Below, one piece after another: positions 4,537 to 13,039 of a stretch of DNA of 15,331 nt. A program made the position numbers and the translations under genes. Source of the stretch: a virus (Duplodnaviria; Heunggongvirae; Uroviricota; Caudoviricetes); the IMG/VR virus record IMGVR_UViG_2706794665_000015. The stretch is one strand, 5' to 3'. The first letter of the stretch is position 1, and every line of letters starts with the position of its first letter. The notes beneath the pieces are model-generated. The model made no database searches, was not told the DNA's origin, and worked only from the letters and a program-made list of their open reading frames with translations.

Positions 4537-4589
4537 GGGCGGCAGAGCAGTCACGGAGTAAAACTGATACCGCCAAACGTCACCAGAAA
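4537..4589 (-). ncRNA. dicF: DicF small regulatory RNA (53 nt; known to repress ftsZ and other mRNAs)
   Basis: Reverse complement of 4537-4589 is TTTCTGGTGACGTTTGGCGGTATCAGTTTTACTCCGTGACTGCTCTGCCGCCC, identical to the DicF sequence as I recall it, followed on the minus strand by TTTTT (plus 4532-4536). Confidence 0.85.
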
Positions 4590-9153: not shown

Positions 9154-9411
9154 CGGGAAGCCGCAACACAGGAAGAAATTAAAACAGAAACTGTGGCGGA
9201 CATTGTGCAGCCGTTGCCATCGTTTACCGAAACGCAAGCAGATGAGCTGATTTTTCCGTCCCTTCGCAGGGCAAACCTGGCGCTGCGCAGGGCGAAAAGT
9301 GATGTTCAGAAGTGGGAGCGAGTCTGCGCCGCGCTGCGGGAGCTGAACAAGCACCGGGATATTGTTCGACAGATTACTGATTCTTCCCGCCGTGTTGTAT
9401 CGGAAAAGTGA
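9154..9411 (+). CDS. 3' portion of a CDS whose start lies in or before the N run
   Basis: The frame is open from the first base after the gap to TGA at 9409-9411; the track's GTG start at 9193 is probably internal. Could be the C-terminus of the 8661 gene if the gap is short. Confidence 0.4.
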   Translation, partial: REAATQEEIKTETVADIVQPLPSFTETQADELIFPSLRRANLALRRAKSDVQKWERVCAALRELNKHRDIVRQITDSSRRVVSEK

Positions 9412-9426
9412 TTGCCGGAGGCGCTT

Positions 9427-9819
9427 ATGGCAAAAGTATTTACACCAGAAGAGCGGGAAGAAGTGAAGGCGCGCATTGTGGAATTCGTGCGCCTGAGCGG
9501 ACGAGAAACTTTTCGACAACTGGCAGATAAAACGGGTGTCAGTAAGACCGCTATTCGTCGTTTATCTGGTGCGCTTGCGGCCAGTGGTGATGTCTGGCTC
9601 TCTGGTTGCGGGGTATTTCCATCAGAGCAGGCGTATCGCGTATGGCGTAAGACACCGGAGAAGGCTGCTGACCCGACACTGATTCGAAAGTTACCTGACG
9701 GAGAAATACGTCGTTACAACAGACGGCAGAACATAATTTGTCGTGAGTGCCGCCAGAGCGAAGTTATGCAGCGTGTGCTGGCGTTCTATCGGGGAAACTT
9801 TCAGGAGGTGATGGAGTGA
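9427..9819 (+). CDS. Hypothetical protein with a predicted helix-turn-helix segment (130 aa)
   Basis: ATG at 9427 preceded by GGAGG (9416-9420); HTH-like stretch FRQLADKTGVSKTAIRRL; C-terminal CxxC (CRECRQ). Confidence 0.55.
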   Translation: MAKVFTPEEREEVKARIVEFVRLSGRETFRQLADKTGVSKTAIRRLSGALAASGDVWLSGCGVFPSEQAYRVWRKTPEKAADPTLIRKLPDGEIRRYNRRQNIICRECRQSEVMQRVLAFYRGNFQEVME

Positions 9820-10112
9820 GGGTCAGAGTTTATATTGCCGGTCCAATGACGGGATATGAAAATTTCAACCGTGAGGCGTTTCACAAGGCGGAAGAGGAAC
9901 TGAAACGGGAAGGGCATACCGTCTTAAACCCGGCAGTACTTCCGGACGGGCTGACACAGCCGCACTACATGGATATTTGCATGGCAATGATTCGTTGTGT
10001 GGATGCGATTTACATGCTGAATGGCTGGCAGCGGTCAGCGGGCGCTAAGGCAGAGCTGGCACTGGCGGAGAAACTGGGGCATGCAGTGATTTATCAGGAG
10101 GTGGCTCAATGA
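9816..10112 (+). CDS. DUF4406-like protein (nucleoside 2-deoxyribosyltransferase-like fold), 98 aa
   Basis: GTG start at 9816 with GGAGG upstream, needed to include the conserved VYIAGPMTG glycine-rich loop; start overlaps the upstream stop. Family call is from recalled motif. Confidence 0.55.
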   Translation: MRVRVYIAGPMTGYENFNREAFHKAEEELKREGHTVLNPAVLPDGLTQPHYMDICMAMIRCVDAIYMLNGWQRSAGAKAELALAEKLGHAVIYQEVAQ

Positions 10113-10570
10113 GAGAGGTTAACTATGAGGCGCTTCGTGAGGCAGCACAAAACTATCAGTCGACGCTGGCGTGGTATCAGGCTATCCCGGACAGCCCAAA
10201 TGCTGAACGGGATTGTGATGCGGCTCTTGCTGCGTTTAAGCGTCACATCCGTCATCGGGAAGCGGATATTATCGCTGATTTGCTGGATGGACTGGAAGAA
10301 GCAAAATCACAACTCAAAGAGCAGCGTGAGTATTACGAAGGCGTTATCTCTGATGGGAGCAAGCGTATTGCTGAACTGGAAGCGCGGGAAGTTCAATTAC
10401 CGACTCGCTACGACCTTCGATATGGACACCCGATAAATGCAGATGAGCGACATGTCATGATACCTAAAGAAAATGGCAGTTGGCTTTACCTGATTGACCT
10501 AGAACACGCATTACGCGTCTCTGGCATTCGCATCAAAGGAGAGGAGCATGGAAATAAAACCAGAGGATGA
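10109..10570 (+). CDS. Hypothetical protein (153 aa)
   Basis: ATG overlaps the upstream stop (ATGA at 10109-10112); part of a chain of coupled nin-like genes. Confidence 0.55.
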   Translation: MREVNYEALREAAQNYQSTLAWYQAIPDSPNAERDCDAALAAFKRHIRHREADIIADLLDGLEEAKSQLKEQREYYEGVISDGSKRIAELEAREVQLPTRYDLRYGHPINADERHVMIPKENGSWLYLIDLEHALRVSGIRIKGEEHGNKTRG

Positions 10571-10659
10571 GTTAAGCAATATCGTTTTATTTCCGGTAAA
10601 AGAGGATGACCCTCGTAATCAGGTTAATTTTCTTTATGAGCCATCGGAAAGACCATATT
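10548..10659 (+). CDS. Hypothetical protein, 5' portion only (runs into the N run)
   Basis: ATG at 10548 preceded by GGAGGAG; frame is open to the gap at 10660. Confidence 0.45.
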
Positions 10660-10910
10660 NNNNNNNNNNNNNNNNNNNNNNNNNNNNNNNNNNNNNNNNN
10701 NNNNNNNNNNNNNNNNNNNNNNNNNNNNNNNNNNNNNNNNNNNNNNNNNNNNNNNNNNNNNNNNNNNNNNNNNNNNNNNNNNNNNNNNNNNNNNNNNNNN
10801 NNNNNNNNNNNNNNNNNNNNNNNNNNNNNNNNNNNNNNNNNNNNNNNNNNNNNNNNNNNNNNNNNNNNNNNNNNNNNNNNNNNNNNNNNNNNNNNNNNNN
10901 NNNNNNNNNN
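10660..10910. other. Run of 251 N (assembly gap or masked sequence)
   Basis: Uninterrupted N characters. Confidence 1.
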
Positions 10911-11857: not shown

Positions 11858-11977
11858 ATATTTAGACTAAAGAGTTTGTAACGCTATGTAAGTGATTTTT
11901 TCTGGTTTAGATATTTATATGTCCGGCCAAATTGAGGTGTGTTTAAATGTAATTGCACATTGATTGTAGGGGGAATA

Positions 11978-12157
11978 ATGAAAAACGCATTGCAGTTTTT
12001 GTTTGTTGCGTTCTGGTTGTTCGCATCATGTATGCCCATCATCTTCACAGCAAGGTATATGGAAAAAATTGATGTTTTGATATTAATGTTTGGACATATA
12101 AATGCCCTTTTTTTAGGGGTGTTCATGGCGGTCATGTGCATTGAATACTGGCGGTAA
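11978..12157 (+). CDS. Small hydrophobic protein (59 aa, two predicted transmembrane helices)
   Basis: ATG at 11978 preceded by AGGGGGAA; A+T-rich; the track's GTG start at 11939 adds 13 residues with no RBS. Confidence 0.45.
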   Translation: MKNALQFLFVAFWLFASCMPIIFTARYMEKIDVLILMFGHINALFLGVFMAVMCIEYWR

Positions 12158-12212
12158 ATACAGCGAACGCCATTGGTTTAGTTGGATATTTACTGTGCCG
12201 GACAAAAACGGT

Positions 12213-12240
12213 TTGCGGGGAAATCTTAGTTAAGTAGAAT
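12213..12240 (+). promoter_or_regulatory. Putative promoter of the hok transcript (-35 TTGCGG, 16-bp spacer, -10 TAGAAT)
   Basis: Hexamers at 12213-12218 and 12235-12240, about 120 nt upstream of the leader ORF, consistent with the long structured 5' leader of hok-family mRNAs. Confidence 0.35.
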
Positions 12241-12359
12241 AACTGCGGGTGCTTGAGGCTATCTGTCTCAGGCATGAACACCAAAAGGCAGATAGAGAAA
12301 AGCCCCAGTTAACATTACGCGTCCTGCAAGACGCTTAACATTAATCTGAGGCCATATCT

Positions 12360-12419
12360 ATGCGACACATAGAGATTAGCCTCTTACGGACCGAAAGGTC
12401 AAGGAGAAGCAGGCTATGA
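12360..12419 (+). CDS. Short upstream ORF (19 codons) ending in ATGA overlap with hok; mok-like coupling element
   Basis: ATG at 12360 with GAGG upstream; its TGA (12417-12419) overlaps the hok ATG (12416-12418). Confidence 0.3.
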   Translation: MRHIEISLLRTERSRRSRL

Positions 12420-12571
12420 AGCAGCAAAAGGCGATGTTAATCGCCCTGATCGTCATCTGTTTAACCGTCATAGTGACGGCACTGGTAACGAGGAAAGACC
12501 TCTGCGAGGTACGAATCCGAACCGGCCAGACGGAGGTCGCTGTCTTCACAGCTTACGAACCTGAGGAGTAA
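12416..12571 (+). CDS. hokD: Hok-family type I toxin (HokD/RelF-like), 51 aa
   Basis: Product MKQQKAMLIALIVICLTVIVTALVTRKDLCEVRIRTGQTEVAVFTAYEPEE has the Hok signature (single TM helix then RKDLCE…); GGAG 7 nt upstream. Coordinates may be off by 1 (hand-indexed). Confidence 0.85.
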   Translation: MKQQKAMLIALIVICLTVIVTALVTRKDLCEVRIRTGQTEVAVFTAYEPEE

Positions 12572-12641
12572 GAGACCCGGCGAGGGAGAAATCCCTCGCC
12601 ACCTCTGATGTGGCAGGCATTCTCAACGCACCCGCACTTAA

Positions 12642-12671
12642 CCCGCTTCGGCGGGTTTTTGTTTTTATTTT
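12642..12671 (+). terminator. Rho-independent terminator of the hok transcript
   Basis: CCCGC-TTCG-GCGGG hairpin followed by TTTTTGTTTTTATTTT; preceded by a second perfect 9-bp stem (GGCGAGGGA-GAAA-TCCCTCGCC, 12579-12600) like the 3' fold-back element of hok mRNAs. Confidence 0.7.
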
Positions 12672-12787
12672 CAACGCATTTGAAGTTCTGGACGGTGCCG
12701 GAATAGAATCAAAAATACTTAAGTAGCGCGCAGGGATAAGAGGGATGGTCCCTTAAAGGGGAGAGCTAATTATCCGGAAGGATTCTG

Positions 12788-13039
12788 ATGATGAACATCG
12801 AAGAACTGCGTAAAATTTTTTGTGAAGATGGCCTCTATGCTGTGTGCGTTGAAAATGGAAATATTGTTAGTCATTACCGCATTGTGTGTTTGCAAAAAAA
12901 TGGGGCTGCGTTAATTAATTTTGTGGATGCCCGAGTGACGGACGGATTTATCTTGCGCGACGGTGAGTTTGTCACTTCATTACAGGTATTGAAAGAGATC
13001 GGAATAAAAGCTGGCTTTTCTGCTTTTTCAGAAGAATAA
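12788..13039 (+). CDS. rem: Rem-like protein (83 aa, function unknown)
   Basis: MMNIEELRKIFCEDG… ; GGAAGG upstream; same length and position (next to hokD, before ydfU) as Rem of the Qin prophage as I recall it. Confidence 0.65.
   Translation: MMNIEELRKIFCEDGLYAVCVENGNIVSHYRIVCLQKNGAALINFVDARVTDGFILRDGEFVTSLQVLKEIGIKAGFSAFSEE

Follow-up and report, generated by a model that had tools for sequence, protein, structure and literature searches.

The question raised by this locus is whether the small Hok-family toxin gene found in the window (the whole 15,331-nucleotide stretch of DNA that was analysed, from IMG/VR virus record IMGVR_UViG_2706794665_000015) belongs to a complete type I toxin–antitoxin system with its own regulatory architecture, as the original prediction held. 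Reading of the sequence combined with comparison to relatives places a complete hok/mok/sok type I toxin–antitoxin locus at positions 12213–12667. On this evidence, the locus is a real, intact hok/mok/sok cassette under predicted antisense-RNA control, carried by an E. coli lambdoid prophage, and the cassette is probably working. The more specific reading, namely, an intact type I cassette of the hokD/hokW subgroup that is a moron of a lambdoid prophage and operates by the mechanism proposed below, appears very likely to us. The cassette lies in the nin-like region of the lambdoid (DicF/DicB-type) prophage, between the early genes and rem/Q. The suggestion that the locus is self-contained stands, in that each element of the architecture occurs here and is conserved in homologues; as a very common moron, though, the locus is nothing unusual. 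An unannotated 59-aa ORF upstream of it (11978–12157) has no matches in Pfam, PHROGs or NCBIfam. The features discussed below are the following.

12213–12240, plus strand: candidate hok promoter, with −35 TTGCGG (12213–12218), a 16-nt spacer and −10 TAGAAT (12235–12240), from sequence and conservation
12247–12667, plus strand: predicted full-length hok mRNA, about 420 nt, with the start at 12247 taken from the start of the Rfam model and the end from the T run of the terminator
12247–12258, plus strand: tac (translational activator), GGGUGCUUGAGG, which pairs with 12621–12633 in the MFE fold
12257–12297, plus strand: 5' stem-loop, CTATCTG (12259–12265) with CAGATAG (12289–12295), from the Rfam consensus structure
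12298–12366, minus strand: predicted Sok antisense RNA, about 69 nt, with ends mapped from the annotated 933W SokW misc_RNA via alignment A2
12301–12306, plus strand: ucb, or anti-SD box, AGCCCC, invariant or nearly so in 25 sequences
12348–12351, plus strand: mok Shine–Dalgarno (SD) sequence GAGG, 8 nt upstream of the mok ATG, from sequence and conserved in alignment A3
12360–12419, plus strand: mok leader ORF ('mini-mok'), 19 codons plus TGA, from sequence and relatives
12373–12402, minus strand: candidate Sok promoter, with −35 TTGACC (12402–12397), an 18-nt spacer and −10 TAATCT (12378–12373), from sequence and conservation
12401–12406, plus strand: hok SD AAGGAG, from sequence, with CAAGGAG invariant in A3
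12416–12571, plus strand: hok toxin gene, 51 aa, from the ORF, Pfam and RefSeq identity
12539–12551, plus strand: segment within the hok coding region, paired with 12414–12425 around the hok start (helix 6, MFE fold)
12579–12600, plus strand: 3' UTR hairpin GGCGAGGGA-GAAA-TCCCTCGCC, with a 9-bp stem (12579–12587/12592–12600; helix 13 of A3)
12621–12633, plus strand: fbi (fold-back inhibitory element) UCUCAA-C-GCACCC, complementary to tac, from the MFE fold, relatives and covariation
12640–12667, plus strand: intrinsic terminator AACCCGC-TTCG-GCGGGTT (stem-loop 12640–12657) followed by a T run, from a terminator scan

Toxins of the Hok/Gef family are membrane proteins of about 50 aa with an N-terminal transmembrane helix and the motif RK-x-LCE-[VI]-R, present here within TRKDLCEVR. 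The assignment of the ORF at 12416–12571 to this family, made originally from the sequence, is borne out by its matches to Pfam PF01848 (HOK_GEF; E 1.2e-23, 82.9 bits with a cutoff of 22) and to PHROG 251, 'MokW-like host killing' (E 2.8e-33); the NCBIfam Hok subfamily models match as well, but under their strict cutoffs. The protein is identical to RefSeq WP_000813254.1, an accession shared with K-12 HokD, and is 92% identical to HokW and 42% identical to the R1-type Hok. HokD, the same RefSeq protein, is reported to be toxic when overexpressed (bioRxiv 10.1101/2025.08.07.668861), and sokW neutralises the toxicity of HokW (PMC8621323).

Of the sigma-70 consensus, 3 of 6 positions are matched by the −35 hexamer of hok and 3 of 6 by the −10 hexamer of Sok. 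A consensus promoter scan of 11900–12900 called neither of them, returning a single site at 12680–12709, so their assignment rests on comparative conservation. Both are conserved in position across genera. A TAnnnT hexamer is located exactly 6 nt upstream of a GGGTGC or GGGCGC start in essentially all relatives, and most of these have TTG near −35; in the window, the hexamers of the hok promoter delimit the span first proposed for it. On the opposite strand, the plus-strand sequences GGTCAA (12397–12402) and AGATTA (12373–12378) read as TTGACC and TAATCT, exactly at the positions first proposed for an antisense promoter, and conservation of the block CTCCTTG(A)CC..GTAAGAGGC-TA[AT][TC]CT extends from Photorhabdus through E. 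coli to the R1-type plasmid. The −35 hexamer of Sok overlaps the hok SD on the other strand. In hokW-sokW, which is 91% identical, mutation of the sokW promoter abolishes the antitoxin activity (PMC8621323).

The transcripts that would arise from these promoters have recognizable counterparts. The Sok RNA had been expected at about 12300–12366, in agreement with the span mapped from the annotated SokW of 933W, and is predicted to consist of a single-stranded 5' tail, a long hairpin and a U-rich 3' end (−29.5 kcal/mol, z −5.6). The hok leader matches the Rfam family RF01794 on the hok-sense strand at 12247–12418, over the entire model (1–157 of 157), with 106.7 bits (gathering score 59) and E 7.6e-24. 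The inverted repeat reported in the leader is the real, conserved 5' stem-loop of this family, with the CAGATAG arm as given and the CTATCTG arm at 12259–12265 rather than 12260–12266; overall, the observation was confirmed, with two one-base slips in its coordinates. The terminator scan likewise recovered the predicted intrinsic terminator at the downstream end.

Folding of the predicted transcript, a check suggested along with the original prediction, yields a whole-transcript MFE structure of −167.7 kcal/mol (z −8.1) that includes the tac/fbi helix. The fold was assessed in an alignment of 25 sequences from six genera (Escherichia to Photorhabdus, Erwinia) and an R1-type plasmid (A3). The consensus structure has 96.1% of the cells paired, compared with 39–47% in slid-partner controls, and 23 pairs with compensatory changes, compared with 1–11 in these controls; none of 500 shuffles reached the observed values. 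Covariation in this alignment supports the proposed mRNA fold. The tac/fbi helix (helix 1) is paired in 100% of the cells and shows a UA/CG compensatory change, at tac position 4, which covaries with its fbi partner (UA in 17 sequences, CG in 6 and UG in 2). The 5' stem-loop (helix 2) is 99% paired, with two compensatory pairs; helix 6 (columns 192–203 with 320–332), which also appears in the MFE fold, is 97.8% paired, with three; and the 3' hairpin (helix 13) is 95% paired, with four.

A tac/fbi duplex of 12–14 bp is found in nearly all relatives at the same position and at a conserved distance past the stop codon. Of 2000 versions of the 3' UTR of the window obtained by dinucleotide shuffling, 74 (3.7%) equal its energy, −19.8 kcal/mol, which, taken from the window alone, is of marginal significance and not convincing. 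Only part of the architecture appears to exceed chance in the window by itself, and it is the comparative evidence, that is, the RF01794 match, the positional conservation of the promoters across genera and the covariation in the mRNA, that is decisive. The 9-bp stem described downstream of hok as a fold-back exists, as the hairpin at 12579–12600, but it is not the fold-back inhibitory element, which had been missed and lies further downstream, at 12621–12633. The R1 counterpart of this hairpin is the 'last stem-loop of Tr-hok' (PMC9841398), and the hairpin presumably caps the processed hok mRNA at its 3' end.

In the full-length fold, the AGCCCC box pairs with the mok SD (GAGG region); the box corresponds to A70–C74 of R1 (R1 numbering as in PMC9841398). 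Direct reading of the sequence shows that the box region could alternatively pair with tac, G2, G3, G5, C6, U7 and U8 of tac facing C12306, C12305, C12303, G12302, A12301 and A12300, with one mismatch, which matches the R1 contacts G4–C72, C5–G71 and U6–A70 (PMC9841398).

These elements suggest the following course of events. The weak promoter at 12213–12240 would produce an hok mRNA of about 420 nt that, by homology, starts at approximately 12247. In the full-length RNA, as shown by folding and covariation, tac pairs with fbi, the AGCCCC box holds the mok SD, and the segment 12539–12551 holds the hok start region; with all these sites sequestered, the RNA would, by analogy with R1, be neither translated nor bound by Sok. 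Slow trimming of the 3' end to the hairpin at 12579–12600 would then, on the R1 model, remove fbi, allowing tac to pair with AGCCCC and thereby freeing the mok SD. This open tac/ucb form was not recovered when 3'-truncated RNAs were folded to their MFE structures: in the RNA 12247–12622, 5'–3' pairing with the leftover sequence was retained, whereas the 5' end of 12247–12604 folded into a local hairpin similar to the metastable structure that has been described, and the mok SD was paired in both, so that the refolding step continues to be taken from R1. A constitutive, unstable Sok RNA of about 69 nt, running from 12366 to 12298 on the minus strand, would pair with the mok initiation region and block it, by analogy with R1 and hokW-sokW. 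Once the supply of Sok stops, ribosomes would translate the 19 codons of mok through the hok SD, and, on terminating at the UGA, which shares bases with the hok AUG, would initiate Hok, a putative 51-aa inner-membrane toxin.

By analogy, the role of the cassette is most likely the same as that of hokW-sokW, for which experiments published in 2021 established a functional type I system that promotes release of the phage (PMC8621323): the cassette would be silent in the lysogen and would add to membrane damage and lysis at induction or upon failure of Sok transcription. A possible but less probable alternative is that the cassette is active primarily in post-segregational (post-excision) killing, which would stabilise the prophage, or in abortive infection against superinfecting lytic phages that block host transcription. 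R1 hok/sok stabilises plasmids and lowers T4 plating, according to the summary given in PMC8621323, hok is approximately fourfold enriched in prophages (bioRxiv 10.1101/2025.08.07.668861), and the combination of a stable mRNA with an unstable Sok suits any trigger that stops transcription. However, hokW-sokW, the only close relative tested, aided the release of its own phage after mitomycin C rather than defence (PMC8621323), and hok is not enriched near defence systems (bioRxiv 10.1101/2025.08.07.668861). The chromosomal hokA, hokB and hokC are reported, in work cited in the same preprint, to lack post-segregational killing. Sequence does not separate these roles, which, moreover, are not mutually exclusive; for prophage biology, the locus is another instance of a very common moron whose role (lysis timing, maintenance or defence) is debated.

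A different doubt concerns the mok leader ORF. As originally described, a 19-codon upstream ORF ends on the hok start: it begins with the ATG at 12360, crosses the hok SD and terminates with the TGA at 12417–12419, which overlaps the hok ATG (12416–12418) as ATGA. This mini-mok is shorter than the 68–71 codons that are usual in the family, and its start lies 56 nt from the hok ATG. In approximately 100 of the 119 unique loci, mok is long, with a 57-nt, in-frame or a 58-nt, R1-like spacing; R1 mok itself has 70 codons and a 58-nt spacing (numbering in PMC9841398). The 2-nt shorter mok of the window could be viewed as a frameshift that weakens or abolishes the coupling, so that the locus, albeit structurally complete, is disarmed and persists as neutral prophage baggage, with Hok hardly ever made, as is the case for the chromosomal hok loci that are inactivated in K-12. 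The prevalence of long mok is compatible with this possibility, and natural inactivation of hok is frequent: K-12 hokD has lost its leader, and two other loci (L133 and L173) carry an ISNCY element at the hok start.

Several observations, however, make such disarming unlikely. The 56-nt spacing recurs in three lineages that are unrelated to one another, in each case with an intact hok, tac/fbi and Sok promoter, and the exact allele of the window is present in about one-seventh of the complete E. coli genomes. A mok stop codon located past the hok SD and overlapping the AUG is the classic layout of termination–reinitiation. Mutagenesis of R1 indicates that translation of mok is required up to the hok SD and start but is dispensable past the hok start (PMC9841398); the mini-mok, presumably translated up to the hok start, satisfies the rule that ribosomes need only reach the hok initiation region. 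Against this stands the finding that, in R1, Hok is abolished by all five substitutions that place a stop codon in mok ahead of the hok start (PMC9841398), as the stop codon of mini-mok sits right at that boundary.

On balance, we favour the view that mini-mok is functional and represents a third, naturally recurring coupling design, in which a 56-nt spacing and an AUGA overlap would link mok to hok via termination–reinitiation. If so, the 56-nt, 57-nt and 58-nt designs between them use, in different relatives, every one of the three frames of the same leader nucleotides, which would be a natural demonstration that the translation of mok matters and its product does not, and would provide natural support for the R1 conclusion on translation of mok up to the hok start. 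The mini-mok is the only mildly fresh point of the locus.

The notion that the upstream promoters, small ORF and hairpins arose by chance beside a genuine hok, comparable to the leaderless hokD of K-12, could draw on the empty promoter scan at both sites and the marginal tac/fbi duplex energy but is refuted, to the point of having practically no probability, by the full-length Rfam leader match (E 7.6e-24), the conservation of every element in position across genera and the covariation statistics that back the mRNA structure, with annotated and experimentally tested equivalents in 933W/Sp5 (PMC8621323) also speaking against it.

The locus is ordinary, belonging to the commonest prophage morons of E. 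coli, and it is already known, with the same DNA present in many records and a 91%-identical relative tested experimentally. AR_0013 and about 770 further E. coli records (the count is for an exact 100-nt allele) contain identical DNA, annotated there as hokD. The hok genes of the 5,426 E. coli genomes occupy about 9,000 places. The annotation of the identical record indicates that relBE is not in the prophage. At such loci, RefSeq gives the hokD coding sequence only and omits mok and Sok. Beyond annotation, the importance of the locus is little.

Among the known systems, hokW-mokW-sokW of the Stx2 phage 933W and the Sakai prophage Sp5 is prophage-borne, as is the cassette described here. The DNA of 933W is 91% identical over 12243–12643, carries annotated mokW, hokW and sokW, and shares tac, the 5' hairpin, ucb, the Sok hairpin, the Sok promoter block, the hok SD, the 3' hairpin and fbi. 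The hokW-sokW locus of 933W/Sp5 is annotated in the GenBank record. The two differ as follows: mokW starts 57 nt upstream of hokW, in frame with it, and its annotation is that of a 70-aa Hok with an N-terminal extension, whereas the spacing in the window is 56 nt, with the mok stop codon on the hok AUG; the Sok promoter is TTGACC-18-TAATCT in the window and TTGCCT-17-TAACCT in 933W; the terminator and the 3' flank diverge past 12643; and hokW lies near the right end of 933W, whereas the window cassette is in a nin-like region adjoining rem.

Alignment to chromosomal hok loci, another suggested check, identified the hokC(gef)/mokC/sokC-type loci of Escherichia species at 75–77% DNA identity, with Hok about 80–82% identical, and K-12 hokD from 12402 onward. 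The hokC-type loci share the conserved elements of A3, and two of them, from E. ruysiae (L017) and E. whittamii (L019), likewise carry a mok of 19 codons at the 56-nt spacing; the hokC-type loci differ in that their Sok hairpin region is shortened (gap across A3 columns 87–106), the −10 is TATAAT and the flanks are unlike.

The archetype of the family, hok/mok/sok (parB) of R1, is plasmid-borne, and the role in post-segregational killing is established there. It has the same order of elements and the same logic. The tac sequences compare as GGCGCUUGAGGC versus GGGUGCUUGAGGC; the AGCCCC box is shared, and so is the mok SD, GAGG in both, 8 nt before the mok AUG (G105/A106 in R1; PMC9841398). The R1-type Sok promoter reads TTGCGC..GTAAGAGGC-TATCCT, and tac/fbi and other helices are kept between the R1-type locus and the window through compensatory changes. 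The DNA is too diverged for blastn, and a blastn search against plasmids reached no R1-type hok/sok; the R1-type locus used here (L005) was fetched by tblastn with the R1 Hok sequence as the query, to which 100% matches exist. Equating L005 with R1 proper was set aside, given that its mok has the 57-nt in-frame spacing compared with 58 nt in R1 (PMC9841398).

Finally, hokD (relF) of the Qin prophage of K-12 is more than 99% identical in DNA from 12402, within the hok SD, through rem, and the downstream neighbours (rem, a DUF968 gene and the antiterminator) are common to both. K-12 hokD keeps the hok SD, the ORF, the 3' hairpin, fbi and the terminator but lacks the hok promoter, tac, the 5' hairpin, ucb, the Sok RNA and its promoter, and the mok start, everything 5' of 12402 being replaced by relB-relE, with relE immediately upstream. 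The statement that K-12 hokD sits downstream of relBE, which is missing from the window, thus proved correct. For two loci in which the leader and hok are 3.3 kb apart (L133 and L173), a relBE insertion that had duplicated a 15-bp target was considered, but their ORFs reveal an ISNCY transposase abutting the leader, the insertion point of the element coinciding exactly with the hok start; such an IS-associated rearrangement is not clean evidence for the origin of K-12 hokD. Compared with K-12, the window carries the undisrupted form of the hokD locus and shows what its ancestor apparently looked like.

The hok locus of the window has the layout that the original prediction had described from the sequence alone. 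The features discussed here, including two in the surrounding DNA, are the following.

4537-4588, minus strand: DicF antisense sRNA, full-length match to Rfam RF00039 (76.7 bits, E = 8.7e-16)
11978-12157, plus strand: 59-aa hydrophobic ORF (MKNALQFLFVAFWLFASCMPIIF...), with a GGGGG Shine-Dalgarno (SD) sequence just upstream
12213-12218 and 12235-12240, plus strand: putative hok promoter, TTGCGG and TAGAAT, read from the sequence
12348-12351, plus strand: GAGG 5' of the mok ATG, read from the sequence
12360 (ATG) to 12417-12419 (TGA), plus strand: mok, the upstream ORF, 19 codons, TGA overlapping the hok ATG as ATGA
12402-12397 and 12378-12373, minus strand: putative promoter of the antisense RNA Sok, TTGACC and TAATCT, read from the sequence
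12416-12571, plus strand: hok ORF, 51 codons, encoding MKQQKAMLIALIVICLTVIVTALVTRKDLCEVRIRTGQTEVAVFTAYEPEE, from direct reading of 11900-12900 and ORF listing
12579-12587/12592-12600, plus strand: 9-bp hairpin
12640-12657 plus T run, plus strand: terminator, from a terminator scan

The product of the hok ORF matches Pfam PF01848 (Hok/Gef; E = 1.2e-23) and PHROG 251 ('MokW-like host killing'; E = 2.8e-33) and, by homology, is the Hok/Gef toxin claimed at this position. The 19-codon upstream ORF with its stop codon over the hok ATG, the candidate hok promoter (12213-12240), and the stem and intrinsic terminator 3' of hok were all found as described, with the two minus-strand hexamers exactly at their claimed coordinates. 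The inverted repeat is present as well, with CTATCTG at 12259-12265 instead of 12260-12266, the only slip found; overall, the observation was confirmed, and its interpretation is supported.

A consensus promoter scan of 11900-12900 called neither the hok nor the Sok promoter. Both putative promoters are well supported, not by consensus strength, but because their positions and sequence blocks are conserved across relatives. A TAnnnT hexamer (TAGAAT, TATAAT, TACAAT, TATATT, or TAGTAT) lies exactly 6 nt 5' of the GGGTGC/GGGCGC start across the relatives, where a TTG near -35 is usual, even with unrelated flanks. The Sok promoter block, CTCCTTG(A)CC...GTAAGAGGC-TA[AT][TC]CT, is kept in loci ranging from Photorhabdus to E. 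coli, as well as in the R1-type plasmid, and is absent from K-12 hokD. In many phage relatives, homology starts between the -35 and -10 elements of the hok promoter (about 12227), so that the -35 region (TTTGCGG, ATTGGCG, GTTGGCA, or none obvious) varies with genomic context while the -10 element and the transcript do not; the start of the mobile unit appears to lie within the promoter. The only promoter-like site called by the scanner in 11900-12900 (TTGAAG-18-TAGAAT, 12680-12709, plus strand) closely follows the hok terminator and precedes rem (12788-13039), a position that suggests a separate promoter for rem.

An Rfam scan of the whole window yielded two matches at the gathering threshold, DicF and 'sok'. 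The latter (RF01794; 12247-12418, plus strand, full length, 106.7 bits against a gathering score of 59, E = 7.6e-24) covers tac (the 5' mRNA element), the 5' hairpin, the Sok-target hairpin, and the mok region. Although named 'sok antitoxin', this family runs along the hok-sense strand, beginning at the mRNA start and ending at the hok AUG; a match to it therefore marks the hok leader rather than the Sok-encoding strand, and here it validates the leader, not the antisense RNA as such.

On folding, the predicted full-length transcript (12247-12665) proved to be structured (-167.7 kcal/mol, z = -8.1), with the 5' GGGUGCUUGAGG paired with the 3' UCUCAA-C-GCACCC (12621-12633), the tac/fbi helix that the original prediction had missed. 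This fold also has the AGCCCC box (12301-12306) paired with the mok SD, and 12539-12551 paired with the hok start region. Folding of the predicted Sok RNA (-29.5 kcal/mol, z = -5.6) leaves the 5' tail single-stranded, ahead of a long hairpin and a U-rich end. Within the window by itself, the tac/fbi duplex exceeds chance only marginally (74 of 2000 shuffles match it), which led us to assemble relatives: 53 loci taken from one genome per species, and 120 from viral contigs. A direct search found a duplex of 12-14 bp, its distance past the stop codon conserved at about 45-50 nt, in nearly all of them; in Photorhabdus, tac is GGGCGC and fbi is GCGCCC. An alignment of 25 loci (Escherichia, Kluyvera, Citrobacter, Pseudocitrobacter, Photorhabdus, Pantoea, Erwinia, Kalamiella, and one R1-type plasmid) gave a consensus structure of 70 pairs, 23 with compensatory changes. 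Paired cells amount to 96.1%, compared with 39-47% when partners are slid by 1-3 columns, and two-sided changes occur in 23 pairs compared with 1-11; the structure, being derived from the same alignment, is somewhat favoured in this count, but the margin is large, and none of 500 shuffles attained the observed values. The 9-bp hairpin is helix 13 of this structure, with four compensatory pairs, and is the presumed counterpart of the terminal stem-loop that protects the processed mRNA of R1 (PMC9841398). The open form did not emerge when truncated RNAs were folded for minimum free energy.

In the same 25 loci, Hok codon 47 (Tyr47; 12554-12557, plus strand), TAC followed by G (UACG), is invariant, including the synonymous third base. 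According to a 2026 preprint (10.1101/2025.08.07.668861), A-to-I editing of hokD mRNA, as of hokB, recodes a Tyr to the second Cys; the Tyr47 UACG would be that edited site.

The spacing between the mok and hok ATGs falls into three classes among 119 unique loci: 57 nt (about 90 loci), with mok in frame with hok, the annotated 68-72-aa 'Mok'; 58 nt (11 loci), the R1 arrangement (mok ATG at 116, hok ATG at 174; numbering of PMC9841398); and 56 nt (13 loci), the 19-codon 'mini-mok' with its stop fused to the hok start. The last class comprises the window clade (8 unique sequences), hokC-like loci of E. ruysiae and E. whittamii (2), and Erwinia/Kalamiella loci (3), and arose more than once, given that the peptides of these groups are unrelated. 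Between them, different relatives use all three reading frames of the same leader nucleotides (12363-12415 and relatives), giving ..LASYVPKGKEK.., ..VPLTDRKVKEK.., and ..ISLLRTERSRRSRL. Two indels account for the frame differences, one of 2 nt following ATGC and one of 1 nt within GG(T)CAAGG; the second also decides whether the Sok promoter has TTGACC with an 18-nt spacer or TTGCCT with one of 17 nt. Mutagenesis of R1 showed that mok translation is needed up to the hok SD/start, whereas stops past the hok start are harmless (PMC9841398); mini-mok extends just that far and is probably functional. The exact 100-nt allele (12335-12434) is present in an estimated ~770 E. coli records (1,502 at >=99% identity minus 733 partial K-12-type matches); among 60 evenly spaced rows sampled, 10 were identical over the full length and 9 were partial matches of the K-12 type. 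This recurrent design is one of two modestly new points of this analysis.

The locus itself is an already known, very common prophage cassette, with identical DNA in public genomes. The E. coli AR_0013 chromosome carries the surrounding 701 bases with 100% identity. Of 5,426 complete E. coli genomes, 4,938 match some part of this stretch, at as many as 9 places in one genome, and 79 phage records match too, including mEp460, HannyBb, PPompW phages, and Stx phages, with the annotations MokW, gef, or host killer. In AR_0013, the locus belongs to a lambdoid prophage integrated beside tRNA-Ser/mtfA, in the order integrase, exonuclease, dicB, repressor/cro, replication genes, several small genes, hokD, rem, a DUF968 gene, rusA, antiterminator, lysis genes, and terminase; of the cassette, the hokD coding sequence alone is annotated in RefSeq, and neither mok nor Sok. 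The DicF match, together with dicB, which the identical record annotates in that early-left region (L001, 5342-5530), marks the prophage as Qin/DicF-type lambdoid. The 59-aa ORF, in the AT-rich gap 5' of the hok promoter, is unannotated in that record and lacks matches in Pfam, PHROG, and NCBIfam; it may be a moron encoding a small membrane protein, or an ORF that arose by chance. More generally, hok genes are about fourfold enriched in prophages (bioRxiv 10.1101/2025.08.07.668861).

Phage 933W, with mokW, hokW, and the SokW antisense RNA annotated in GenBank, is 91% identical to window 12243-12643. Carried over by alignment, the SokW ends fall at 12366 (5'), seven bases downstream of the TAATCT hexamer, and 12298 (3'). 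Hok of the window is 92% identical to HokW and 42% to Hok of the R1-type plasmid. HokW is toxic and is neutralised by sokW expressed from its own promoter, mutation of which removes protection; after mitomycin C, sokW is lost and HokW appears, RecA-dependently, and deletion of hokW-sokW halves Sp5 phage release (Takada et al., PMC8621323).

Every cis element and the closed-form helices are present and conserved, and we commit to the canonical hok/sok pathway as the mechanism. The full-length mRNA would be closed, undergo slow 3' trimming, and refold; Sok would then block mok, and Sok decay would permit coupled translation of Hok. R1 and hokW-sokW are the basis on which we infer toxicity, Sok binding, RNase III cleavage, and the processing and refolding of the mRNA. 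By analogy with the latter (PMC8621323), aid to lysis and release on induction appears to be the likeliest role; prophage maintenance or abortive infection, as originally proposed, is a possible one.

The contrast drawn with K-12, where relBE precedes hokD, is right: there is no relBE near the locus or in the annotated AR_0013 prophage, whereas K-12-type Qin, with the same RefSeq protein (WP_000813254.1), has relB-relE immediately upstream. Two viral contigs (L133, 9119-13265, and L173) carry an intact leader (promoter, tac, Sok, mok start) ending at ...GGCTAT; directly after it come a transposase gene of the ISNCY family (9369-10709; NCBIfam E = 7e-140) and a K-12-like flxA-ydfV-relB-relE-hokD block, 99.3% identical to the K-12-type locus. 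The layout is that of an IS insertion or a rearrangement at precisely the hok start codon, splitting leader from toxin. In pairwise alignment, homology between K-12-type Qin and the window starts at 12402 (AGGAGAAGCAGGCTATG...), with only three mismatches up to 12800 and unrelated sequence 5' of it. Hence, K-12 hokD retains the hok SD, ORF, 3' hairpin, fbi, and terminator, but has lost the promoter, tac, the 5' hairpin, ucb (the AGCCCC anti-SD box), Sok with its promoter, and the mok start. This clear view of the losses is the second modestly new point: judging from the alignment, the window is the undisrupted form of the K-12 hokD locus.
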